A DNA stretch of 64,000 nucleotides. Origin: a virus (Duplodnaviria; Caudoviricetes). How positions within the stretch are numbered: position 1 is the first letter of the stretch; each line of letters opens with the position of its first letter. The position numbers and the translations under genes were made by a program. Below are positions 4,045-17,238 of this stretch, piece by piece. A model generated the notes under the pieces. The model had not been told where the DNA came from, searched no databases, and worked only from the letters and a program-made list of their open reading frames with translations. The stretch is taken from positions 2,968 through 66,967 of the IMG/VR virus record IMGVR_UViG_2799112225_000003. One strand, written 5' to 3'.

Positions 4045-7000
4045 CTAAACGCCTTCCGCGCGTGCCCGGGCCACATCCTCGCGCATCTGAACACGCATAG
4101 CTTTAGGTGCGGTATCAGCAATGCGTTGATCCTTTGACTTCTGCATCTCGCGCACCCGGCGCATCACGTCGGGGATGCGCACCAGCATCGGCTGCTCGGG
4201 GTTCTTTCGGTTCCATGCGGCCACCTGGTCGCGAGCATCCTGCACCTTTTGCTGGTCGCCCTCGAAGATGCCTTGAGCCCACATCGCACGGATTTCCTGC
4301 GCCCGCAGGTTGTAGAAGGCCTTCGCGCCCTGGTTGATGCCGTTCGCCTCCTGGATGGTGGCGACGCTGTTGGGCTGGAAGCCGATGGTCTTCAGCGTCG
4401 CCTCCAGCGTGTTCGTGTCCAGCACCTTGTAGCCCTTGGCGTCCCGGTACATGCCGGTCGCAGCCATGTCCGCGCCTTTGGCGGCGTTGCGCACCGCGGC
4501 CGGAGACATTTCCAGCAGCCCAGCACCAACGTCGCCAGTCAGCACGCTACGACCACCCGAGAGGATGCGGCTGGCGAAGTCGCCGGCCGGGCCCGCGATC
4601 TCCAACAGGTCGCGCGAGTGGCTGGTCTTCTCCAGCAACAGGCCGGTGCCCGGGATCAGGTTCCCCATCCCGAGGCGGCCCGACACATCCAGCGGCGCGC
4701 CGGGCAGGCCGCTCACGCCCTTGTCGATGAACTGCGCAATCGGCTTCGGCAGCAGGCTCTCCAGGAAATCCTGGCGGGCCTTCTTCGTCGAGAAGTTGTA
4801 GCCCAGCATCTGCGCCAGCGCGTCGACGGCATCCTCCAGGTCTTCCTCGAAGGGCAGCCCGCCGGCGCCGCCCATCAGCATCAGCATGCCCAGCGCCAAC
4901 AGCGCGGCGCGCTTGCCCTCCGGGCCGCCTTGCGTGTACATGCGGTGCAGCAGCTCGAGGTAGGCCACGCTGTAGGTCTTGAAGGTCATCAGCGTGCCGC
5001 CGATGGCTCCGCGGCCCCACTCCATCTTGTTCGCCTTGCTGTAGAGGAACTGCGTTTCCGTGATGGCCTTGCGTGCGAAGCCCGCCGGGTCTTCCATGCC
5101 CTGCGCCTTGGCCGTCCGGTAGGCGGCAACGAAGGTGACTCGGCGGTTCACCTGCTCGGCGGCGCCGAACAGCTTGCCCCACGCCAGCGAGAGGCGCGAA
5201 AGGGCGTTCTGCCCCATCGCGCGCAGCTCGCCGCCTCGTGTGCCGTCGCCCGAGCGCAGCGAGCTCGCGCCGCGCGCCTGGGCCATCAGCTGGTGCACCT
5301 CCTGCGGGCTCACGGTGCCTTCGTCCTCGGCGCGCTTGAGCGCCGCCGCGAGATCCGGCTCGTACTGGAAGCCGCGCGTGGCGATGTTCTTCGCCGCCCT
5401 GCCGATCTGCGCAGCGGCCGCGCGCGCCCCGCCGTACTGGCTCAGCCACGGCAAGGTCACGGCGACAGGCTGAGTCATGTTCACGAACGCCGACGCCACC
5501 GAGCCGCCCAGGTACTGCGCGAACAGCAGACCTCTCACGGCCTGGGCCTCCTCCTGCGGGTTCTTCACATACTCGGCCAGGCGCACTGCAGCGTCTTTCA
5601 GCTCGCCCTGCTCCTTCGGGATGGCCTGCACCGCCTCGCCGAGATCGCCCATGTGCAATCCTGCGGCCGTCTGGCGCGCGTTCGAGTAGATGAACGAGGC
5701 CAGCACCCGGCCCACGTCCTCGCTGAAGCCGGCGATGCCCTTGCGGTGGATCAGCCGGCGCATGGCACTGCGGTTGGTCTTCGTCAGCCGCAGGTATTCC
5801 TGGAATGCCTGGTCCTGCGCGCTGTCACCGGTCGAATCAAGGCCGAGGGCATTGCCGAACAGTTCCAACGTCTCGGGCGTCACGCCAGCGAAGAGCTTGA
5901 AGGCCTCCTCCGAGAGCGTGCCCTGGGTGACAGTGGCATCGCCGAACTCCTCCCGCATCTTCGTGGCCATGTTGTTTGCCTCGCGCGCCGTCTCGAAGAG
6001 GCCGAAGTACTGCCGCTCGCCGGCAGCGTCCACCACATCGACCGAGTAGCGCCCGAAGCGCGACAGCGGCGCATACCCGCGGGCCTGCAGGTCGCGCACC
6101 TTGTCGGCCCGGTCGATGATGCCGTTGGCGGTGTTCAGGATCTGCGTCGCGCGGTCAGGCTGCTCGTTGGCCAGCTGCACCAGATGATCGCGCAGCAGCA
6201 CGGCGGCTGCCTGCACGTCTGGCGCATCCATCACCATGCCACGCATGGCCTTGGCGTCGTCGCCCACGAACCGCAGCATGTCGGCGCGCGCCATCGTGTC
6301 TAGGCTCCGGTCGGTCGTCTCGCGGAACTCGTGGTAGAGAGCGATCTGGTCGTCGGAGAGTTTGAACATGGAGCGCAGCTCCGCATCCGTCCAGACGACG
6401 CCCGGCTGCAGCATGCGCGACTCGAAGCGCGTGTTGATGGCCTTCTCATAGGACTCCAGGGGCATGCCCTGCCAGGCCTTCAGCATGCGCTCGTCGATCT
6501 GCCCGTTTCGCAGCAGGCGCTGCGCCTTCTGGTCGGCCGTCAGCTCTGCCGCGGCGTCGATGAGCGACTGCACCGGCACCGGCTTGCCCTGTTCGTCACG
6601 CGCCCAGGTCAGCGTGCCCTCGAAGACCGGCTTCGCCACCGCCGCGTTGTCGGCCGCGGCCACCGGCGCTTTCTTGATGTCGCGCCACGTCTCCAGCTTC
6701 GGCAGAAGCTTGGGTGCCAATTCGGCCGCGTCGTTGGCGTAGAAGCTCACGTCGTCCACGAAGCCCTGCGCCGAATCGAACACCGCCTTGAAGGCCGGCG
6801 AGCGCTCCGCGAGGTTGTACATGGTGCCGACCGTCTTGTGCCACCACGACAGCTTGCCGGGAGCGGTGAAGGTCTTGTTGAGCTCCGCCGTGGCCTTCTT
6901 CGCGAAGTCCTGCACCGTGGACCGGCTAAACCGGATGTCCGGGTTGCCGCCGTCGAAGGCCCCGCTGTTGCCGATGGCCGACTTCACCTGGGTAGGCTCG

Positions 7001-10000
7001 AAGGCCACGATCTCTAACGAGCCATCCTCGGCCGTGAGGGTCACGCCGTCGTGCCCCATCGCGCGCAGGTTCGACGTGAACCGGTCCACCTGCGCCTGCG
7101 TCGCCCGCTTCAGCCGAGCCTTGATTTCCGGGGTGGCAACGTAGGGGTTCGTGACTGCGAAGTACAGGGGCATAACGCGCGGTCCGCCCTGACCGCGCTT
7201 CGCGCCGGCATAGTAGTTCGCGTCCGTCGCGTCGCTCGCACCGTAGACGCCGCGGCCGAGCCAGCCTACGTCTTTTCGGTTTGGGTGCTCGGTATCGAAG
7301 GCGGCGAAGTCGTCGCGCGTGCCGTGGAAAAATACGAGCGGGCGGCCTTGCGCATCAACGGGTCCGAGTCGCCCAGGTGCGCCGCCATCTCGGCCGGGCC
7401 CACCGGCGGCAGCTCCGCCAACAGCTCCTCCAGATCCTTGCGTGCCGCTTCGGGTGTCTTTGAGGCTTCCATCCTGCCCACTGTACCAGTGCCAGAAGTT
7501 CGCGACACCTTCGTCGTTCGAGGCGATGGGGGCGCCCAGGCTATTGGCCGTGGCGGGGCCAGCCTCGCCACGGCTGAATCGCAGGCCGTCGCCGGGCCCA
7601 CCGTCCGGACCGCCCTGCTCGACGAAACGGCGGGCGGGCAGGATGAAGTTGCGCACGATCTCGTCATCCGTCATACGCAGGTTGCTGAAGCCCGGCACGT
7701 GCTGGCGCAGCCATGTGCGGATAGCAGCGATCGCGCGGCGCACGAAGTGCAGCTCGGGGTGGGTCTGCGCCATCTCGGCCAAGACTTCCTCCGCCGCGGC
7801 GCGCCGGTCCAGCTTGTTGACGCCGCGCAGGCCGTATTCCTCGATCTTCGCGTCCACGTCAGCCCGACGCATCGTGCCGATCTGGTTCAGCACCTCATCC
7901 AGCCCCTTCCCGAACTGGCCGCGCAGCCCGTGATGGCCCAGTACTTCATGGAAGAGGACGCGCGCAGCGTCGTTGGCCGTAGGAAGCCGCGAAGCCATCA
8001 GGTAGGCCTTGCCGCGATAGTAGAAGCCCTCGGGGGCACCACGCGCGCCGCCGCTGCGCTGCTTGAGGTCGGCGCGCCGGGCCGCCTCGGGCACAACGGG
8101 GTCGCCCATGTCGAAAGCAACGATCACCTCGGGCCCGTTGCCCCAGCCGGCGCGGATCGCCTCGACGGTCTTGGTCACGGACGCCACCGCCTGTGCCCGC
8201 GCCTGGGGCGAATAGTTGGGCAGCAGCGCACGCATCGCCCTCGCCGCCTCGGGCGACAGCATTTCGGTCCCGTCGCGCCGGAACTGCGCGTCGTCGGCGG
8301 GGCCACCGAACTCCTCGAGCGCATCCCCGAATCCTTGCTCGGTGAGCTGCTGACGCTGCTCGGCCATGGCCTTCTGCAACGCGGGCCGCTGATTCAGCGG
8401 GATGTCCGGCCCCTTCGCCACCAGCCGGCGCTGCACGCGGCGGTGCGCCTCACGCGCTACCTCCAGCTCCTTCGCCTGAGCGAACGGCTTGCCGGCCTGC
8501 TCGCGCAACTGCACCGCCGACTGCTTCGCCTCCGCGATCTTGGCGTCCAGGTCGACGATGTGCGCCGGAAGTCGATTGATGTAGTTGCCGAAGCGGGTCA
8601 GGATGCCAGCCGCCGACGGCAGCACGTCCCTGGCCGGCCGGTAGGAGTCCAAGCCGCCCGTGGGCGAGTTGAGCTCCACGTGGTCGGGCGTTCCTTCCAG
8701 CATGAAGGTCACGCCGCGGTACTGGAATTCCTCCTGCCCACCGCTCACGAACACGCGGTCGATGCCACGCTTGACGGCCTTGATCGCCGCCTCACGGTCA
8801 GTGATCGTCTTCCCGGCGACGGTCAGGCCGGCGAAGCCATCCTTGGGCACCGGGTGGGCTTCTGCTGCGGCCTGCAGCGCGCGGAACGTGTCCAGCTCCT
8901 TCGGTCCCCAGTCTTGCGCGAAGCGCTGCTGGTCGCGCGCCTGGCGCACCATCGCCGCAGTTTCGTCAGCGTGGGAGGCCTGCAGTGACTCCAGGCGGCG
9001 CACGTCGTTGCGGAGCCGGGTCTCTTCCAGGATGAGCGGGTCGCCCGATGCGGCGGCCTTCATGTCGGCCGCGTTGGCGGCCTCGCCCTCGATGTCGTCG
9101 ATCTCGTTGAGCGTGCCGTCGTACTTGCGCAGCTGCTCGATGCCGCGTGCCTTGTGTTCCAGGATCTGCCAGCGGCGCGTGTCGTAGGTCTGCTCGGTGG
9201 CGTAGCGGTAGATTTCCACCTCGAAGCCGTCCGGGTCACGGGCATAGAGCGCGTTGCCGCGGCGGATGATGCGGCCCTCGCGCTGCTCCAGGTCGCTCGG
9301 CCGCCACGGCGCGTCGATGTGGTGCAGCCCGACGAGGCGCTCCTGCACGTTGGTGCCTGCACCCATCTTCGGAGTGGAGCCCAACAGGAAACGGATGTCG
9401 CCCCGATTCACCGCCTTGAACAGCTTGTCCTTCGCCGCGGGCGTGTTGTAGTCGTGGATGAACGCGATCTCGCGCTCGGGCACGCCGCGGGCCATCAGCT
9501 TGCCCTTGATATCGTCGTACACCGAGAACGCGGTAGCCCCCGACATGCCCGCGATGTCTGCCAGCGAGATCGATTCGGTTTCCTCGGTGTCGATCTCGTT
9601 GGCGTTGTTGTAGTCGTCGATCTCGTCTTGCTGGAGGTCGCCGATGCGGTCCCGCGCGTCGATCCAGCGCTGACGGCGGCTGTCATCGTTCAGAGCCTGG
9701 GCCGCCCAATCGGTCGCAATGCCCTTGGCCGGCAGACCTGCGTGCACGCGCAGGCCGGTGGCCGCGTCGTAGATGGTGAAGGCCTTGGCGTCTTTGCCGC
9801 CCTCCTTCACCACGAAGAACGGCAGGTCTTCGTGGCCGCGCACCGTGTGCATCGTGCCCTTCTTGTGCACCAGCGCGCCTTCGTCGCGCACGTAGACGCG
9901 CCGCTCCTTGCTGCCGAAGCCGCTACGCGCCGACAGCGGCACGGAGAGGTCGCAGAAGACCAGTTGCGTTCCACGGTCGGCGGTCCACTTCTGGTAGGTG

Positions 10001-13000
10001 CCCAGCATGCGCTCGACGGCGAGGTTGATCTTCGAGCCCGCGAAGTCGGGGGCCGAGGGGTCGATCAGGCGGAAGTCCAGGCCCGCCTTGTTGGCCTGGC
10101 CAGTCAACGACAGCGCGTTGACCTTCCCCTTCGTCTCCTTCGTCAGGCGCTTCAGGTCCGCGAACTGCCCGAGGATCGACTTCGGGTCCACCTTGATCTT
10201 GGGCGACAGCGCCGCTTCGACCACCAGCAGCTTGGCGTCCTCTTCGGTCTTGGCGGACCCGATGAGTTGCCGAATCTCCTTCTCGTCGGGCTGCGGCACG
10301 CGGGTTTCTGCGCGCCAGCTGTTACCGTCCTCGGACTTCTCTATCACCGCGCGCTCGCCCGCGGCCGGGTTGAACCCGAACTGCACTCGCCCGCCCTGGA
10401 TGTCCAGCTGGGGCACGCCCATGAAGTTCGCCACCTCCGGCGAGCGCTTCGCCACCACGTTCACCGGCCGGCCGCCGGCCACCTGCGGCACCGGGAACGT
10501 ACGGCCCCGGGCCTCCTCCTGCGCCTTCAGGTCGTCCAGCGTCACCGTGTCGGCAAAGGTCTGGTACATGCCCATCAGTGCAGGCAGGTTCTTGAACTTG
10601 GCGAACCGCGAGGCCTGGCGGTATCCCGTGCCCGACGGCGAAACCTCGTACAGCGACTCCACGCTGCCGAATTGCTTGGCCCAGGCGTCGAAGACGTGCA
10701 GGCCCTGCGCCTTGAGCGTCGGGTACTGCAGGAACCGCTGCATGTTGAACATTTCCACCAGGCTGTTGGAAACCGGCGTGCCGGTCGCCCCCATCAGCGG
10801 GGCCTTGTCGCCCAGCGCGTCGAAGAGGTACTGGGCCTTCACGAAGAGGTCGAACGCCTTGTCCGATCCGCCCGGGTTGCCCATGCCCGGCACGCGCTCC
10901 ATGGTGGAGTTGTAGAAGAGGTTCTTGAACTCGTGCAGCTCGTCGATGGCGAAGGCATCGACGCCGAGCTCATCGAACGTCACCACCTTGTCGCGCTCCC
11001 CGAGGGCCTGCACGCGCTGCTTCATGCGCGCTTCCAGGCGGGCCTTGATGCTCTCCATGTCGCGCACGATGTTGCGGTCGCCGCGGGCGCGCTTCATCTC
11101 GCCGATGCTGTCGGCCAGCTCGGTAATCTGCTCTTCGAGCACCGCCTTTTCCGTCTCGGCCGGCAGAGCAATCCTCTTCAGGCTGGAGTGGCCGATGATG
11201 ACGGCATCCCAGTCGCCGGTGACGATCTTGGAGAAGAACTTCTCCCGGTTGCCCTTGGTGAAGTCGTCCGGCGTGGCCGCCAGCACGTTGGCCGCCGGGT
11301 ACAGGCGGGAGAACTCGCTGCGCCACTGCAGGGTCAGATGGTTGGGCACCGTTACGATGGGCTTCCGAGCGATGCCGAGCCGACGCATTTCCATGATGGC
11401 AGCCACCACCTCGAAGGTCTTGCCCGCGCCAACGACGTGATCCAGCAGGATCTGGCGCTGCTGCAGGGCCCGCCAGACCGCATCCTTCTGGTGAGGCAGC
11501 AGCTCCATCGCGGGCGACATGCCCGGGAAGGTCATGTGCGAGCCGTCGAAGCGACGCACCACGATGCGGTTCATCTTGTCGTTGTAGATGCCTGCAACGC
11601 GGTCGGCGCGCTCGGGATCGCTCCACAGCCAGCGCTGCCACTCGGCCTTCATGGCGGTCTGCTTCTCGCGCGCCGCCTCTGTCTCTTTCTCGAGCACCAC
11701 CGTGCGGGTACCGCCATTGGGGTCGCGGATGGTGTCCGTGACCACCACGCCCTGCCCCGCCATCGTGCGCATGAAGATGTTCTGCGCCGTCATCCGGCTG
11801 ATGCCCCACTTCGCGGTGTTGAGGGCCGGGTTGGGCTGAGAGGTGTAGTCCACCAGCCACTGCCCGGTCGCTCGCAGGTAGGTGACGCGCGCATCCGCGC
11901 CAGTCACTTCCTTGGCGAACTGCTGGAACAGCTCCTGGGGAATGAACGCCGCACCCATGGCCGCGTGGATTTCGCTCGGCCGCTTGTCGGCCGGGATGAC
12001 CTTGCGCAAGGCTTCCACGTTGCGGCGCAGTGCCGGGTCATCGCGCGCCGCAGCCTCTGCTTCGGCCAACTTCGTCTTCACGTCGCCGGACAGGTATTCG
12101 TCGGCCATCACGAGCCCGTTCACCGGGTCGGCATACACCACGTCGCCCAGCTCCGACACGATCTGGGCCGGCGGCTTGTCGTACAGCGTCGCCATGTAGT
12201 CGGCGTCCAGCCGCCCCTTGTAGTTCAGGCTGGCCAGCAGCGCGTCCTTGGCGTTGCTCACCTTGATGTTGTCCGCTGGCGGGAACATCACGCGGCGCGC
12301 GAAGATGTCGGCCTTGACCGCCTTGGGCGCGCGCGGCTCGATGTCCTCGCGCTCGGCCACCGCCTTGCTCACACCGCGGTCGTAGTCGAACTCCAGTGCC
12401 AGCACAAGGGCAGATTCTGTGTCGTCCAGAAAGATGCGGCGGTTGGTGGGATCGTTCAGGTAGCCGTACTTGCTCTGGAACCCGTCGTAGAGGCGATTCA
12501 GTTCGCGGCGATGCTGTTCGATCTGCCCGTCGGTCGAGTCGGGGGAGCGCTCCAGGCGCATCTGTGCGCGCAGCGCATCGCGCAACCCGACCATTCCCTT
12601 CATGCGCTCTGCCGCTTTCACATTGGGCGGCGTCCACGGCTCGGCCCTCCGGTTGCCGAGCGAATCAGGGCCGCGCATCAACACACGGCCGCTGTCGTCC
12701 ACGTAGAACGAACCGACCTTCACGCCGTCGGGCACCACCACGTCGGCGGCCTCCCGCTCGTGCGTTCGCTCGACTGGCTGGTAGACGTCTTCCGGCAGCG
12801 CATCGGCCCAGGTCTTCAGCTGCTGCGCCAGGTCGCCGGAAGGCTCCACCGTGTATTCGCCTGCACGGTACATCGAGCCCGCGGCCGTCGGCGTGCCGAG
12901 TACCGCCTCAGGGTTGCTCAGGAAGTAGCTGCTGACGTTGTGCTGCGTGGCCTCGCCCGTCTTCGGGTTGGCGAGGGTCTGCTGACCCGCCTTCACCCAT

Positions 13001-16000
13001 GCTGCGTCGCCCAAGCCATTCGCGCGCTCGGATTCCGTCTTCTTCTGGAACACAACGATGTCGGTCACCACCTCGGTGCCGGCGTTCGTCTTGAACGTGG
13101 TGTTCGGCAAGCGGACGGCCGCCACCAGGTTGGCGCGGTCGGCGATCCACTGGCGGGTCGCCTCGTTCTTGGCGTCGAGGAAGTTGTGCGACACCACCAT
13201 CGCCAGCAAGCCACCGGGGCGCAGCTTGTCGATGCTCTTGGCGAAGAAGTAGTTGTGGATCGAAAAGCCCGAGTACGGCGAGCGGTCGTCATCCACGATG
13301 GGCTCGGAGCCGAACGGCGGATTGCCCACGGCCAGGTCGAAGTACTCGGCCGGCGCCTGGAAGTCCTGGAAGCCAGTGGCCTGCGCCACCTTGGCGCTGG
13401 GATACAGCGCGGCGGCGATCTGGCTGGTCAGCGGATCCAGTTCCACGCCGTGCAACTGCGAGCGCTTCCGCATGCTCGCGGGCATCAGCCCGAAGAAGTT
13501 GCCGGTACCTACAGCCGGTTCGAGCACCCGGCCCGCGGAGAACCCCATGCGCTCGAGCGCCTGGTAGATGCCATCGACCACCACCGGCGACGTGTAGTGC
13601 GCATTCAGCACCGATGCGCGGGCGGCCTTGTATTCGGCATCGGTCAACAGCTCGCGCAGCTCGGCGAACTCCTTGGACCACTGCTTGTTCTGGGGGTCGA
13701 AGACACCCTTCAGCGCTCCCCAGCCGACGTAGCGCGCGATCTGCTTGCGCTCCTCGGGCGTGGCCTTGCGGCTCTCCCCGGCCAGCGCCTTGAGGATTCG
13801 GATGGCCGCAATGTTGTCGCGGTACTTCTTGGTGAGCCCGCCCTTGCCGATGTCCTCGGCATCTAGGGTGTGGTCGCTCGGCTGATCGAGCTCGGGCTTC
13901 GGCGACGCCTCGGCGGTCGCCGGGTCGGCTACAGCGTGGGCGGGCTGTCGCTCAGGCCGTACATCTCCGAGATCTCGTGGCGCGCGAGGTGCCGGTTCCC
14001 CGGATCGCTGTACGCCCTCCGTTCGGCCTCCTCCTGTTCCTTCAGAGCCGGCAGGAACTCGTTCGCCTCGATCAGCGCCTTCACCCGCTTCGGCCACCCG
14101 AGCATCCACCGGTTGGCGATCTCGGTCGCCAGCGCCGGCATCGCGCGCATCGCCTCCTTGATCGGCGGCGGGTAGTCGTTCGGTCTGTACAGCTCCTGCA
14201 TTTCGTCCATTGTCGTCTCCTGTGGAATGGGCATCAACGGGCTGCGGCGCCGATGCAGAGGGCTTGGGTTCGTTCAGCCGCGTTACCGGCCCGCGGCGAA
14301 GGTCCACGGCTGAGGGTTGCGTCGAATGTGTGCGCTGCTGCTCGCCTGGGATGTCTTCGAATTGCCCCTGGGCAACTTGGCGGACGGCCCGCACGTCCAC
14401 GCTCCACAAGCCGCCGTTGACGCCGGGCCGGTACGCAACCACACGGTCGAAGCCGCCGTAGCTCTTCACCACGTTGCCCGGCTGGAAGTACGAGGCGCGC
14501 GCCCGCTCTTCTGCTTCATCCTTCTTGGCGAGGACGCCTCGGCGCTGCTTGGGCTCTTGCGCGGGCGACGGGATCGAAGGGGCCGCGGGCTCATCCTTGC
14601 GGCGCATCGTGGCCAGCGGCTTCTTGAACCGGCCGTCCGCGAGGCCGGCCTTGAACTCGTCGACGGACATAGCCGTCACCGGGCCAACCTTCCAGCCCGC
14701 GTCGTAACTGCCCTTGTACGCAGCTACAGCCTCCGCTTCGCTGTGGAAACCGAAGAGGGCCTTCGCCTCGTCATAGGTGCCATCCCCGTTGATCTGGTCC
14801 ACCACGTAGACCGTCGGGGCGGTCGCCGCGGCGGGGCCGACGAACACATCCACGTGGTCGCCGTCGGCAGCCTCGGAGCCCTTCACGTAGCCGTAGTGCG
14901 CGGCCATCGTGTTGCTCCATTCGGTGCCGTCCGGCGACGTGCCGCGGCGCGTGCTGCCCTGCGGGTTCTCCACGCTGATGCGCAGGCCCTGCACCTCATC
15001 GCCGGACAAGTGGCCCATCTTGTAGTTGCCGGCCTCCTTCTGGGCCTGGCTGGGCTCGGGCAGGTCGTTTTGCGGGCTGGTCGCTGCTTCGTTCGCCGCG
15101 GCGTCGACCGGCGCTGCCGCTTCCGGCCGACGAGCGGCGCTGCTTTGCTCGCGCTCGATCTGCGCGATGTCGTTGTCGATGTCGCGCCGCAGAGGCGTGC
15201 CAGGCACAGCCTCGGCGCGCCGGCGGCGCAGGTCCGCCAGTTGATCGGCCGACGCAGCGGCTTGCGGCTGCGCAGCTTGTGCCGGCTGGGCGTCCTTGGC
15301 CTGCACAATGAAGCGCCGGTTGTCCGGCACCACCTCGTGCGTCTCCGTGAGGCCTGACGTTTCCACGAAGGCCTGCGCCTTGTCGCGGGACAGGAACCAT
15401 GCACTCCCTTCTTCCACCCGGCGAACCGCCTTCTCGCGCTTCGCGTTCGGGACTGCCGGTGCTGCCGGCGAGGGTGTCAGCGCTGCTGCGGCTGTGACTG
15501 GCGCTGCTGTAGTCGCTTCTGCTCCTGCCGGCGCTTGTTGCGCGACTGCTTGCTGGGCTTGATCGGCTTGAGTGCCAAGGGTTTCTCCTTTGGGTTGCGG
15601 TGCGGATTCGGGCGCGGCGCGGCGGTCGCGTGCTTGCGAAATGCCCTCCTGCACGCTGTTGGGCGCGGTCGGCGCCGCGGGCGCGAGGGCAGCAAGCTCG
15701 GCCCGGGCGCTGTCGCGCTCAGCGATCAAGCGCTGATCCCAGCCGTTCGACGCGGCCTGTTGGCGCACGAACTCCAGCCGCGCGCGCAGTTCGGCCTCCC
15801 GGTCCTGCGCCTGTTCGGAGATCTCTCCGGTTTCAGCATTGACGTTCGCCACAGGCGCTGCGGCGGGTGCCGGCGAAGCCGCCGCCGGTTTCGCGTCCTT
15901 GCCATCGGCAGCCTCGGTTTGAGCGGCGAGCTGGGCCGCCGCATTCATCACGTCGTGTGCGCCACCATCCACCGCCAGCGCGGCGGCGGTGGACAACGGA

Positions 16001-17238
16001 CCTGCAGCGGGGTCCAGCCCCATCGCTTCGGAGGGACGCACGGGCTTCGCTTCATCAGTGAGAGCGAGGTTGCCCGTGCTGAACTCGCGCGCGTCCGGTG
16101 CTGCCGCCTCGAAGTCCACGCCATCGGTAGGCGCCGTGGGCATCACATCGAGCGGCGGCCGGCTGGCCGGGTCGCGCGGATCAAAGGTGCGCTGCACGCT
16201 GGCCAAGCCGCCCGCAACCGCGGGAATCTCGCTGACCGCCGCGGGTGCCTGGCCCTGGTCCACTGGCAACAGCGAGAGCTGCTCGCCGGGCGTGCGCCCT
16301 GCACTGCCGAGCGCCGCCTGATTCGGGGCGTGCTGACCAGTGGCGCCATGCAGCAGCGCAGCCCCGCCGCCCATGGCACCGCCCGCGAGCAACCCGGCGG
16401 CGGCGGCCTTGCCGACACCTTCACCGACGGGCTTGTCCAGCGCGAGGTTCTGCAGCGCCTGCTCGGACATCGACTGCGGCAGTTCTTCGAGCACGCCCTC
16501 GGACAGGATGCCGGCGCCAACCTGGCGCGCGAGCGAACGCTGTGAGGCGGGCCCGGCGCCGTGGATGGCTCCCTGCGCCAGCATCGTGTCGGCATCGCCG
16601 ATACCGAGGCGTTGCGCCAGGCGGCCACCGAGTGCGCCAAAGCCAGCAGTAGCGGCGCCGGTCGCGGCGGACAGAGCCGCCTGCTTCGGGGTGAGCAACC
16701 CGTCTTGCGTCTCTTGGCGGATCTGCTCGGCCTGCGAGCCCGCCCCCAGCACGCCTTCACCGATGGCGCCAGCGATGGCCGGCGCCACCTTGGGCGCCAA
16801 CTTGAGCAAGCCGCGCGCCACGCCCGCGCCGCCGAGCATCTGCGGGATCGACTCGCCCACGCTGGTCGCGATGGTGCTGGGGTTCTCCAGCATGGTCTTG
16901 GCCGTGTCGACGAAGCCGTCGGCCGCCTGCACCTTGCGGTTGGCGCCCTTCTGCGCATCGGAGTACTGGTCGTCGAGGAACTTCTGCGCGTCCTCGAAGC
17001 GAACTCCTGCCTGCTCCAGAGCTTTGCCAGCGTGGCCGCCCGTCACGATGTCGGCCAAGCCGACGACGCTCTGCGGCAGGCCAACTGCGCCCTTCAGCGC
17101 AGTGACCCCGACATCCTTTGCGGTGCCGAGCACGGTGCGCTTCGCATCGGGCGGATCGAGCTCACCCGAAAACGGGGTGAGGTTGTGGGGTGGGGTATCG
17201 AGTTGCCCGTCGAAGGGCTTGAGGGTTTCGCCAGCCAT
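4045..17238 (-). CDS. Giant polyvalent/DarB-like virion-ejected protein (4397 aa): PPase-like, N6-adenine MTase, SNF2 helicase, zincin-like peptidase, ART-like and PLxRFG domains
   Basis: GNYKMGH...HYGYVKG...DGDHVDVFVGP; EPAVGTGNF and NPPF; VGAGKT, DELH, ATGTP, QREGRIIR; HEVLGHHG; FFHGT...GRGVY...EIVAFEPTQVKSAIGN; YAPLSRFGRY. Confidence 0.92.
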   Translation of the reverse strand: MAGETLKPFDGQLDTPPHNLTPFSGELDPPDAKRTVLGTAKDVGVTALKGAVGLPQSVVGLADIVTGGHAGKALEQAGVRFEDAQKFLDDQYSDAQKGANRKVQAADGFVDTAKTMLENPSTIATSVGESIPQMLGGAGVARGLLKLAPKVAPAIAGAIGEGVLGAGSQAEQIRQETQDGLLTPKQAALSAATGAATAGFGALGGRLAQRLGIGDADTMLAQGAIHGAGPASQRSLARQVGAGILSEGVLEELPQSMSEQALQNLALDKPVGEGVGKAAAAGLLAGGAMGGGAALLHGATGQHAPNQAALGSAGRTPGEQLSLLPVDQGQAPAAVSEIPAVAGGLASVQRTFDPRDPASRPPLDVMPTAPTDGVDFEAAAPDAREFSTGNLALTDEAKPVRPSEAMGLDPAAGPLSTAAALAVDGGAHDVMNAAAQLAAQTEAADGKDAKPAAASPAPAAAPVANVNAETGEISEQAQDREAELRARLEFVRQQAASNGWDQRLIAERDSARAELAALAPAAPTAPNSVQEGISQARDRRAAPESAPQPKGETLGTQADQAQQAVAQQAPAGAEATTAAPVTAAAALTPSPAAPAVPNAKREKAVRRVEEGSAWFLSRDKAQAFVETSGLTETHEVVPDNRRFIVQAKDAQPAQAAQPQAAASADQLADLRRRRAEAVPGTPLRRDIDNDIAQIEREQSSAARRPEAAAPVDAAANEAATSPQNDLPEPSQAQKEAGNYKMGHLSGDEVQGLRISVENPQGSTRRGTSPDGTEWSNTMAAHYGYVKGSEAADGDHVDVFVGPAAATAPTVYVVDQINGDGTYDEAKALFGFHSEAEAVAAYKGSYDAGWKVGPVTAMSVDEFKAGLADGRFKKPLATMRRKDEPAAPSIPSPAQEPKQRRGVLAKKDEAEERARASYFQPGNVVKSYGGFDRVVAYRPGVNGGLWSVDVRAVRQVAQGQFEDIPGEQQRTHSTQPSAVDLRRGPVTRLNEPKPSASAPQPVDAHSTGDDNGRNAGAVQTERLPAADQGGDARDAGAGDRDRQPVDARVAEAGEGADRGERVPAGSEGTGGGRTEGVQRSGEPAPRAPRDLGDVRPERQPAHAVADPATAEASPKPELDQPSDHTLDAEDIGKGGLTKKYRDNIAAIRILKALAGESRKATPEERKQIARYVGWGALKGVFDPQNKQWSKEFAELRELLTDAEYKAARASVLNAHYTSPVVVDGIYQALERMGFSAGRVLEPAVGTGNFFGLMPASMRKRSQLHGVELDPLTSQIAAALYPSAKVAQATGFQDFQAPAEYFDLAVGNPPFGSEPIVDDDRSPYSGFSIHNYFFAKSIDKLRPGGLLAMVVSHNFLDAKNEATRQWIADRANLVAAVRLPNTTFKTNAGTEVVTDIVVFQKKTESERANGLGDAAWVKAGQQTLANPKTGEATQHNVSSYFLSNPEAVLGTPTAAGSMYRAGEYTVEPSGDLAQQLKTWADALPEDVYQPVERTHEREAADVVVPDGVKVGSFYVDDSGRVLMRGPDSLGNRRAEPWTPPNVKAAERMKGMVGLRDALRAQMRLERSPDSTDGQIEQHRRELNRLYDGFQSKYGYLNDPTNRRIFLDDTESALVLALEFDYDRGVSKAVAEREDIEPRAPKAVKADIFARRVMFPPADNIKVSNAKDALLASLNYKGRLDADYMATLYDKPPAQIVSELGDVVYADPVNGLVMADEYLSGDVKTKLAEAEAAARDDPALRRNVEALRKVIPADKRPSEIHAAMGAAFIPQELFQQFAKEVTGADARVTYLRATGQWLVDYTSQPNPALNTAKWGISRMTAQNIFMRTMAGQGVVVTDTIRDPNGGTRTVVLEKETEAAREKQTAMKAEWQRWLWSDPERADRVAGIYNDKMNRIVVRRFDGSHMTFPGMSPAMELLPHQKDAVWRALQQRQILLDHVVGAGKTFEVVAAIMEMRRLGIARKPIVTVPNHLTLQWRSEFSRLYPAANVLAATPDDFTKGNREKFFSKIVTGDWDAVIIGHSSLKRIALPAETEKAVLEEQITELADSIGEMKRARGDRNIVRDMESIKARLEARMKQRVQALGERDKVVTFDELGVDAFAIDELHEFKNLFYNSTMERVPGMGNPGGSDKAFDLFVKAQYLFDALGDKAPLMGATGTPVSNSLVEMFNMQRFLQYPTLKAQGLHVFDAWAKQFGSVESLYEVSPSGTGYRQASRFAKFKNLPALMGMYQTFADTVTLDDLKAQEEARGRTFPVPQVAGGRPVNVVAKRSPEVANFMGVPQLDIQGGRVQFGFNPAAGERAVIEKSEDGNSWRAETRVPQPDEKEIRQLIGSAKTEEDAKLLVVEAALSPKIKVDPKSILGQFADLKRLTKETKGKVNALSLTGQANKAGLDFRLIDPSAPDFAGSKINLAVERMLGTYQKWTADRGTQLVFCDLSVPLSARSGFGSKERRVYVRDEGALVHKKGTMHTVRGHEDLPFFVVKEGGKDAKAFTIYDAATGLRVHAGLPAKGIATDWAAQALNDDSRRQRWIDARDRIGDLQQDEIDDYNNANEIDTEETESISLADIAGMSGATAFSVYDDIKGKLMARGVPEREIAFIHDYNTPAAKDKLFKAVNRGDIRFLLGSTPKMGAGTNVQERLVGLHHIDAPWRPSDLEQREGRIIRRGNALYARDPDGFEVEIYRYATEQTYDTRRWQILEHKARGIEQLRKYDGTLNEIDDIEGEAANAADMKAAASGDPLILEETRLRNDVRRLESLQASHADETAAMVRQARDQQRFAQDWGPKELDTFRALQAAAEAHPVPKDGFAGLTVAGKTITDREAAIKAVKRGIDRVFVSGGQEEFQYRGVTFMLEGTPDHVELNSPTGGLDSYRPARDVLPSAAGILTRFGNYINRLPAHIVDLDAKIAEAKQSAVQLREQAGKPFAQAKELEVAREAHRRVQRRLVAKGPDIPLNQRPALQKAMAEQRQQLTEQGFGDALEEFGGPADDAQFRRDGTEMLSPEAARAMRALLPNYSPQARAQAVASVTKTVEAIRAGWGNGPEVIVAFDMGDPVVPEAARRADLKQRSGGARGAPEGFYYRGKAYLMASRLPTANDAARVLFHEVLGHHGLRGQFGKGLDEVLNQIGTMRRADVDAKIEEYGLRGVNKLDRRAAAEEVLAEMAQTHPELHFVRRAIAAIRTWLRQHVPGFSNLRMTDDEIVRNFILPARRFVEQGGPDGGPGDGLRFSRGEAGPATANSLGAPIASNDEGVANFWHWYSGQDGSLKDTRSGTQGSGGAVGGAAAGGPGRDGGAPGRLGPVDAQGRPLVFFHGTRDDFAAFDTEHPNRKDVGWLGRGVYGASDATDANYYAGAKRGQGGPRVMPLYFAVTNPYVATPEIKARLKRATQAQVDRFTSNLRAMGHDGVTLTAEDGSLEIVAFEPTQVKSAIGNSGAFDGGNPDIRFSRSTVQDFAKKATAELNKTFTAPGKLSWWHKTVGTMYNLAERSPAFKAVFDSAQGFVDDVSFYANDAAELAPKLLPKLETWRDIKKAPVAAADNAAVAKPVFEGTLTWARDEQGKPVPVQSLIDAAAELTADQKAQRLLRNGQIDERMLKAWQGMPLESYEKAINTRFESRMLQPGVVWTDAELRSMFKLSDDQIALYHEFRETTDRSLDTMARADMLRFVGDDAKAMRGMVMDAPDVQAAAVLLRDHLVQLANEQPDRATQILNTANGIIDRADKVRDLQARGYAPLSRFGRYSVDVVDAAGERQYFGLFETAREANNMATKMREEFGDATVTQGTLSEEAFKLFAGVTPETLELFGNALGLDSTGDSAQDQAFQEYLRLTKTNRSAMRRLIHRKGIAGFSEDVGRVLASFIYSNARQTAAGLHMGDLGEAVQAIPKEQGELKDAAVRLAEYVKNPQEEAQAVRGLLFAQYLGGSVASAFVNMTQPVAVTLPWLSQYGGARAAAAQIGRAAKNIATRGFQYEPDLAAALKRAEDEGTVSPQEVHQLMAQARGASSLRSGDGTRGGELRAMGQNALSRLSLAWGKLFGAAEQVNRRVTFVAAYRTAKAQGMEDPAGFARKAITETQFLYSKANKMEWGRGAIGGTLMTFKTYSVAYLELLHRMYTQGGPEGKRAALLALGMLMLMGGAGGLPFEEDLEDAVDALAQMLGYNFSTKKARQDFLESLLPKPIAQFIDKGVSGLPGAPLDVSGRLGMGNLIPGTGLLLEKTSHSRDLLEIAGPAGDFASRILSGGRSVLTGDVGAGLLEMSPAAVRNAAKGADMAATGMYRDAKGYKVLDTNTLEATLKTIGFQPNSVATIQEANGINQGAKAFYNLRAQEIRAMWAQGIFEGDQQKVQDARDQVAAWNRKNPEQPMLVRIPDVMRRVREMQKSKDQRIADTAPKAMRVQMREDVARARAEGV
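7266..7472 (-). CDS. Candidate nested gene (68 aa) in +1 frame of giant gene
   Basis: MEASKTPEAARKDLEELLAELPPVGPAEMAAHLGDSDPLMRKAARSYF looks helical/HEAT-like while the main frame is a Gly-rich linker; RBS weak. Confidence 0.4.
   Translation of the reverse strand: MEASKTPEAARKDLEELLAELPPVGPAEMAAHLGDSDPLMRKAARSYFSTARATTSPPSIPSTQTEKT
13929..14210 (-). CDS. Nested gene (93 aa) in +1 frame of giant gene
   Basis: AGGAG 7 nt before ATG; protein-like sequence (IANRWMLGWPKRVKALI...HLARHEISEMYGL) while the main frame is low-complexity G/R/D/A. Confidence 0.75.
   Translation of the reverse strand: MDEMQELYRPNDYPPPIKEAMRAMPALATEIANRWMLGWPKRVKALIEANEFLPALKEQEEAERRAYSDPGNRHLARHEISEMYGLSDSPPTL
15477..15578 (-). 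CDS. Candidate nested basic micro-protein (33 aa) in +1 frame of giant gene
   Basis: AAAGGAGA then TTG start; MALKPIKPSKQSRNKRRQEQKRLQQRQSQPQQR. Confidence 0.45.
   Translation of the reverse strand: MALKPIKPSKQSRNKRRQEQKRLQQRQSQPQQR

Follow-up and report, generated by a model that had tools for sequence, protein, structure and literature searches.

The linkers between the enzymatic modules of a giant phage protein are very probably dual-coding, with a small gene that has its own start nested in the +1 frame at three of them. The protein is encoded in the virus record IMGVR_UViG_2799112225_000003 (Duplodnaviria; Caudoviricetes), of which a stretch of 64,000 nucleotides (positions 2,968 to 66,967 of the record, hereafter the window) was analyzed. 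An open reading frame (ORF) at positions 4045..17238 of the window, on the minus strand, encodes this protein of 4397 residues, which is a polyvalent, DarB-like protein and probably part of the virion. A preliminary description of the DNA had pointed to three small ORFs within it, here named n1, n2 and n3, and their coordinates, common strand and single shared frame, +1 to the giant frame, were confirmed. Based on frame-specific substitution and conservation, they are genuine overprinted genes, firmly so for n1 and n2 and probably so for n3.

Frame-specific composition and substitution at three sites of the giant gene

The first ORF, n1, extends over positions 15477..15578 (minus strand) and encodes 33 residues from a TTG start, with an isoelectric point (pI) of 12 and a MALKPIKPSKQ-like N terminus. 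It is preceded by a Shine-Dalgarno (SD) sequence, AAGGAG (15585..15590, minus strand), located 6 nucleotides before the TTG, whose position is kept in relatives in which the remainder of the upstream 20 nucleotides has diverged. The second ORF, n2 (13929..14210, minus strand), encodes 93 residues from an ATG, or 90 residues when counted from the family-conserved methionine at 14201. Five helices are predicted for its product, which carries the motifs IANRWxLGWP and HLARHEI, and an AGGAG (14217..14221, minus strand) stands 6 nucleotides ahead of the ATG at 14210. The third ORF, n3 (7266..7472, minus strand), encodes 68 residues from an ATG; the first ~48 residues are protein-like, with three predicted helices and a helix-turn-helix (HTH)-like lead, and the tail overlaps the ART domain of the giant protein. 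Two strong SD sequences had been described, and these are the ones of n1 and n2, both with a 6-nucleotide spacer; the SD sequence of n3 is weak.

Over all three ORFs the giant frame is linker-like, as had been noted, with the residues G, A, P, D, E, R, Q, S and T making up a fraction of 0.87-0.89 versus 0.65 gene-wide. The idea that each ORF stands just before an enzymatic module held for n2, whose stop lies ~15-20 residues ahead of the DarB-like methyltransferase (MTase)/helicase module. It had to be amended for the other two: n3 overlaps the first residues of the ART-PolyVal domain (from residue 3295) rather than only preceding it, and n1 ends 143 residues ahead of the InPase domain (from residue 731), from which a further small domain separates it.

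The length of an ORF is uninformative in this gene (see below), and comparison with relatives is decisive; selection in the +1 frame was judged from codon-position substitution counts between relatives. As regards composition, the G+C content (GC) of the giant gene at codon positions 1, 2 and 3 is.70,.47 and.86, respectively. At n1, n2 and n3, and exactly there, the codon-position signature shifts to the +1 frame, most clearly at n2 and n1, which rank first and second among the 87 alternative-frame stretches of the gene. For the substitutions, the whole gene was compared with one relative (12,789 of 13,194 nucleotides covered) in segments of 120 nucleotides, and a segment was flagged when it had at most two changes at main-frame third positions or more changes at first than at third positions. 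The mean number of substitutions per segment was 1.74, 0.75 and 8.73 at positions 1, 2 and 3. The only flagged segments were those at 15379-15618, 13879-14208 and 7249-7518, which correspond to n1, n2 and n3, respectively.

The n2 family and its MTase/helicase module

Searches by tblastn identified an n2 homologue with 77% identity in Pseudomonas phage 8P, inside a 5145-residue "structural protein", and others with 38-39% identity on two betaproteobacterial plasmids, where the Prokaryotic Genome Annotation Pipeline (PGAP) lists a separate 96-residue gene. On both plasmids a long ORF reads through the n2 homologue, with n2 again in the +1 frame. A profile search extended the family to 35 viral and 59 genome loci (94 DNA loci). 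At the protein level, it comprises 105 clusters of ~90-residue "hypothetical proteins". Homologues of n2, like those of n1, reach down to 34-60% identity with the start, stop and SD sequence kept.

The comparison with phage 8P gave a sharp change in substitution pattern. At main-frame positions 1, 2 and 3, substitutions amounted to 32/91, 11/90 and 9/90 inside n2, versus 8/96, 11/97 and 35/96 just past its stop. The pattern flips at n2, which indicates that selection switches frame there, the changes being located at the wobble positions of n2 itself. The n2 ORF is under protein-level selection and n2 is a real gene.

The giant frame is maintained as well. Across n2 it was open in 77 of 97 loci, among them every one of the 35 viral loci, and the third frame was open in 0/97. 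Among 95 complete copies, the one in the window included, 52 are nested, that is, with at least 300 nucleotides of open giant frame on both sides. No giant-frame stop was present in any of the 43 distinct nested copies, and 23 of the 40 non-nested copies had one to four. When the n2 protein was held fixed and its codons were redrawn from local usage (2000 trials per locus), the host frame stayed open by chance in 0/2000 trials in six loci of 39-41% GC, at a frequency of 0.001-0.07 in most loci of 53-64% GC, and at 0.20 in the window itself. The giant frame across n2 is kept open by selection. Initiation signals are likewise conserved, with an ATG at the family N terminus in 43 of 44 distinct nested copies and an SD-like core 3-11 nucleotides upstream in 37 of 44 distinct nested loci, versus 8.5% at random positions of the same ORFs. 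The AlphaFold2 model of n2 has five helices and a mean predicted local distance difference test (pLDDT) score of 87.9. A fold search with it yielded no structural neighbor (best E value of 4.3 in PDB and 3.4 in BFVD, with only unnamed clusters in the Atlas), and no Pfam, NCBIfam or PHROG model matches n2.

We also observed that, on the two plasmids (L002:5604-12266 and L003:1344-3542), PGAP places the start of an "N-6 DNA methylase" downstream of the n2 homologue. The long ORF starts upstream of it and its N-terminal domains look alike by eye on both plasmids; the annotated methylase start may be wrong.

Nested ORFs had been expected to travel with their own modules, and this was borne out for n2. 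Homology between the giant proteins of the window and 8P starts at giant residue 1013, which is the start of n2, and 8P lacks both the InPase and the ART module. Among pairs of nested n2 loci, the 400 residues downstream were homologous in 1177/1326 and the 300 residues upstream in 237/1326. Downstream of n2, the DarB-like N-terminal region is present in 50 of the 52 nested loci and 6 of the 43 non-nested ones.

The n2 family occurs in phages and in conjugative elements, where it is also free-standing. The free-standing genes have no constant neighbor; among their neighbors are a relaxase with LPD7, Rv2179c-like exonucleases, TrfA, T5orf172 and MTases. In a quick tree built from 78 of 83 rows (the five outside 80-125 residues were left out), nested and free-standing copies are intermixed, and well-supported branches force at least five changes of state. 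An accessory or regulatory role of n2 with the MTase/helicase module is our tentative preference over an autonomous anti-defense or regulatory protein, held with somewhat less than even confidence.

n1, n3 and the competing explanations

The N terminus of n1 is found again in six lineages, together with an SD sequence and a start of ATG or TTG, and in 17 further viral contigs. No n1 motif was detected in the 24 kb of phage 8P that were examined. All 22 distinct copies are nested in the +1 frame of long ORFs, and in the 17 viral contigs the host frame around n1 is open for 892 to >1687 codons. Over codons 2-11 of these 22 copies, pairwise differences at n1 positions 1, 2 and 3 were.115,.117 and.356, and amino acid identity was 0.648 in the n1 frame versus 0.498 in the giant frame. 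An SD-like core was present in 21 of the 22. As with n2, it is the small frame that is under protein-level selection, and n1 is a conserved, very basic micro-ORF (23-47 residues across copies). Its supposed link to the InPase domain did not stand: InPase homology in other phages begins 365 nucleotides past the n1 stop, and lineages differ in the sequence that flanks n1. In only 1 of the 17 viral contigs is n2 found within 2.5 kb of n1. A tblastn search with n1 in phages gave no match, a weakly informative blank given that the query is short and of low complexity.

Two further observations were made around n1. In the window, a small domain (giant residues 600-668, positions 15235-15441; …AWFLSRDKAQAFVETSGLTETHEVVPDNRRF…) follows n1, and look-alikes precede n1 in the giants L025 and L026. 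Which of the two comes first, n1 or this domain, appears to depend on the lineage; the resemblance was seen by eye and was not reported by BLASTP. In addition, a main-frame motif of the PKTEKEA(K/R) type recurs ahead of successive domains in the giants L016, L025 and L026, around the n1 homologues, and could be a junction or processing motif.

As for n3, it is 97% identical in close relatives whose ART domain is 91-92% identical. Against the relative L106, third-position changes of the main frame numbered 2/69 inside n3 versus 25-28/100 in both flanks, and the island of suppressed substitution (7232..7503, minus strand) consists of the ORF plus ~30 nucleotides on each side. In the first 125 nucleotides of n3, four of five changes read from the alignment are synonymous in its frame. 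In favor of n3, a motif, LxxxLxxLP, is shared by the +1 ORFs of two more remote lineages, which count as doubtful copies; ART modules still further away have no such ORF. No homologue was found in phages or plasmids. A phmmer search against 1.8 billion representatives gave five matches. Among these, P0107 and P0110 were rejected as translated repeats, and BLASTP did not confirm P0108. Over its first ~48 residues, n3 resembles the winged HTH (wHTH)-like repeat units of P0109 (E value of 3.6e-6), which we keep as a lead only; P0109 is a protein of 219 residues with four tandem wHTH-like units that weakly match HTH_24, AsnC and MarR. We judge n3 to be lineage restricted and probably coding, with a confidence moderately above even.

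Several points weigh against the reading of dual-coding linkers with nested genes. The support for all three ORFs is sequence comparison, and their translation, the separate products, their functions and the order of events are what we infer from it. No function, fold or family emerged for n1, n2 or n3. The lengths of the ORFs are no greater than chance would give: in synonymous shuffles that preserve the main protein, the +1 frame remained free of stops at the three sites with P = 0.30, 0.88 and 0.25, and the giant gene contains 21 stretches of at least 60 codons in the +1 frame versus 21.9 in shuffles. The nested n2 loci are related by descent, so that their counts are not independent events. 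The reading of n2 as a strict cognate partner of its module is weakened: in 37 of 43 non-nested loci, no DarB-like region was found within the downstream flank of ≤4 kb, and of 93 phage records that carry the DarB-like N-terminal region, many of them named so, 92 lack n2 and one has it. An obligate partnership is not supported. Finally, for n3, the codon-position pattern is flat in the two more remote lineages, and an 80-nucleotide indel interrupts n3 in L107. Its search among 5.8 billion proteins returned one 97% match, metagenomes added one further locus at 97%, and its AlphaFold2 model is poor (pLDDT of 63; predicted template modeling score of 0.22).

These last points leave room for an explanation specific to n3, in which the island would be a nucleic acid element or a recently exchanged cassette rather than a coding sequence. 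Consistent with this, all three codon positions are conserved against L106 (3/69, 1/69 and 2/69 changes at positions 1, 2 and 3), no family was found and the structure model is weak. However, the island matches the ORF and its initiation region, the +1 frame has the codon signature of the genome, the few changes are mostly synonymous in n3, and its product resembles the repeats of P0109. We regard a noncoding island as doubtful, though as a serious competitor at this one site.

The small genes might instead be fossils, swallowed when modules fused and silent now, whose signals are leftovers that serve as linker DNA. A codon-usage signature in the +1 frame could linger after loss of function, n3 is lineage restricted and broken in L107, and the quick tree intermixes nested and free-standing n2. 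However, stop codons and frameshifts would accumulate in a dead gene, whereas each of the 43 nested copies of n2 is intact, and both n2 and n1 have remained so over deep divergence, with change biased to wobble positions and with the ATG and SD sequences in place, which makes the fossil explanation quite improbable.

Programmed +1 frameshifting at SD-like pause sites, producing truncated giant isoforms with tails of n-peptide, would also account for the same strand and the +1 frame, and SD-like sequences within genes are known to stimulate frameshifting (e.g., in prfB and dnaX). However, the start is kept at the family N terminus (the ATG of n2 in 43/44; an ATG or TTG for n1), free-standing n2 genes start at the same methionine, the +1 frame opens only 21 codons ahead of the n2 start, and no conserved slippery site was seen in the aligned regions upstream of n1. 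We consider frameshifting very improbable.

It is more improbable still that the ORFs arose by chance, long off-frame ORFs being expected in a gene of 66% GC: the shuffles described above and the many longer off-frame ORFs agree with this, but the frame-specific substitution and composition are limited to the three sites, homologues of n1 and n2 at 34-60% identity keep their start, stop and SD sequence, and n2 also exists free-standing, so that chance is contradicted for n1 and n2. Equally remote is the view that the giant is several genes, with small ORFs placed as in intergenic regions and a through-frame open by compositional accident, which agrees with the PGAP annotation of the two plasmids and with six loci in which the long ORF starts just upstream of n2, but not with the low-GC loci, where more than 2400 codons are open, yet the host frame survived 0/2000 shuffles. 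The upstream modules have no stop of their own and ribosomes must therefore read through them; the JC1 paper (PMC9144972) reports that mass spectrometry detected a homologous DarB-like giant in virions. For n1 and n2, fossils, frameshifting, chance and separate genes are all contradicted by these results.

Proposed origin, genomic context and relation to known systems

Under the favored reading of dual-coding linkers, each small gene would most likely be translated on its own, by internal initiation on the same late mRNA that encodes the giant. Protein-level selection within an overlap would act on the small gene, and the giant frame would only need to stay open; its reading would be a disordered linker rich in G, A, D, R, P and Q, whose sequence is dictated by the small gene. 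The n2 gene (~90 residues, helical, a new family) would be passed on together with the downstream MTase/helicase module as one unit, and its product probably acts as an accessory factor for that module, or serves the same anti-defense task, needed as a separate protein that is not packaged. The n1 gene would be an independent, conserved microprotein gene of the N-terminal part of such giants, and n3 a younger, lineage-restricted case ahead of the ART domain. As to origin, free-standing small genes between module genes may have been engulfed when neighboring genes fused by read-through, the frame at -1 to each small gene becoming the linker.

Similar arrangements were observed in cultured phages. 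The Erwinia phages PEp14 and Pavtok and the Klebsiella phage SopranoGao have a conserved +1 ORF of ~105 residues at the position of n2, and the Ralstonia phages AhaGv and Gamede have a third type there, a +1 ORF of 107 residues. In both types the codon signature is that of the +1 frame, change is biased to wobble positions and the substitution pattern switches frame as at n2; between PEp14 and SopranoGao, substitutions at positions 1, 2 and 3 numbered 39, 27 and 18 of 103 inside the ORF, versus 28, 18 and 56 downstream. No homology of the PEp14-type or AhaGv-type ORF to n2 was found, the profiles of n2 and the PEp14 type being matched with a probability of 3.4%. The PEp14-type ORF matched TnpV (PF14198) with an E value of 4.3e-4 and 20.7 bits, below the Pfam cut-off of 27. 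That gene callers would miss such genes had been anticipated, and the records of 8P, PEp14, Pavtok, AhaGv, Gamede and SopranoGao indeed list only the giant coding sequence there. The n1 and n2 families and at least two further types of nested ORF are absent from Pfam, NCBIfam and PHROGs. In these five phages, PEp14, Pavtok, SopranoGao, AhaGv and Gamede, the unannotated +1 ORFs lie directly ahead of the DarB-like MTase module, at L199 (1178-1492), L201 (1178-1492), L203 (1145-1468), L200 (1208-1528) and L202 (same place).

A wider proposal is that polyvalent anti-defense giants are built by read-through fusion and that each junction can hide a separately made cytoplasmic partner of the neighboring enzyme (a regulator, inhibitor, chaperone or packaging factor). 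We find this generalization rather unlikely as it stands. If true, the nonhomologous genes nested at one and the same junction across several phage genera would represent a general, unannotated layer of phage anti-defense biology. On a practical level, real genes overlooked by standard annotation can lie within giant phage genes, and giant ORFs deserve to be scanned for frame-switched constraint.

The window, with a G+C content of 65.7%, is a podophage-like genome. The giant gene has terminase, portal and head-closure genes on one side and an endolysin gene on the other. Its identification as a polyvalent DarB-like gene comes from the ORF call, Pfam, PHROGs and gene context. The best-matching PHROG is phrog_10089, "DarB-like antirestriction" (2075.8 bits), and Pfam matches, all at or near the Pfam cut-offs, comprise InPase, Eco57I-type MTase, SNF2/ResIII, Helicase_C and ART-PolyVal. 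The InPase domain (residues 731-864) lies at 14647..15048. It is followed, after n2, by the DarB-like MTase/helicase module at 9256..13926, delimited by Pfam, PHROG and homology, with Eco57I at residues 1286-1375, SNF2/ResIII at 1911-2037 and Helicase_C at 2588-2661. The ART-PolyVal domain (residues 3295-3428) lies at 6955..7356, its first ~30 residues being overlapped by the tail of n3; all these features are on the minus strand. The layout is the same as that of Bcep22-like podophages, whose DarB-like giant is described as a virion protein by mass spectrometry in passages of the JC1 paper (PMC9144972). The giant gene also contains very long ORFs in the +2 frame (4547-5824, 10970-12037 and others; up to 425 codons), which lack an alternative-frame signature of GC at third positions and were not flagged in the substitution scan. 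They are as expected, because third positions are poor in T.

DarB-like proteins protect phage DNA from restriction, and where a small protein is genetically linked to a module of this kind, a role as its helper or regulator is an obvious possibility. Passages on the Dar system of phage P1 state that the DarB-type MTase/helicase needs nearby-encoded small proteins, including Ulx (PMC12810830). The likeness lies in the genetic link of n2, likewise a small protein, to a DarB-like module; the difference is that ulx in P1 stands as a gene of its own, downstream of darB, and is not nested. Identity of n2 with P1 Ulx was rejected, with an hhalign probability of 0.8%. A likeness also exists to TnpV (PF14198) of conjugative transposons, both being small helical proteins of mobile elements, and membership of n2 in that family is not supported, with 0/41 n2 members matching at E values up to 1.

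The giant itself fits the polyvalent proteins that Iyer et al. 2017 (PMC5512222) described from phages and conjugative elements. InPase, ART-PolyVal, MTase and SNF2 helicase domains are joined in one polypeptide with a late or virion context, and the n2 family, like polyvalent domains, occurs in both phages and conjugative elements. The main-text passages of that paper make no mention of overlapping, frameshift or linker, and nested out-of-frame genes lie outside the concept described in them. In the main-text literature searched, no account was found of genes nested within linkers of polyvalent or DarB-like giant proteins.

Embedded genes in the +1 frame are already known in phages, the nearest parallel being Rz/Rz1 of lambdoid phages, in which Rz1 is wholly embedded in the +1 frame of Rz. 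As in that pair, the small genes described here are contained in the +1 frame of a larger gene on the same strand, with initiation signals of their own and both frames probably functional. The differences are that n1 to n3, which lack a PHROG match, have no sequence relation to Rz/Rz1, the host is a 4397-residue multienzyme protein with overlaps in its linkers, the host frame is without amino acid constraint in the n2 overlap, and three genes are embedded in one host. The overprinted genes of small viruses, such as B within A and E within D in phiX174, also read one DNA stretch in two frames, with asymmetric constraint on the older and newer frames. Here, unlike in phiX174, the small gene looks like the older frame because free-standing homologues exist, and the giant frame would be the later reader, acquired by read-through fusion rather than by de novo birth of the small gene. 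The apparent order of the two frames suggests how modules become welded into polyvalent proteins and where their linkers originate.

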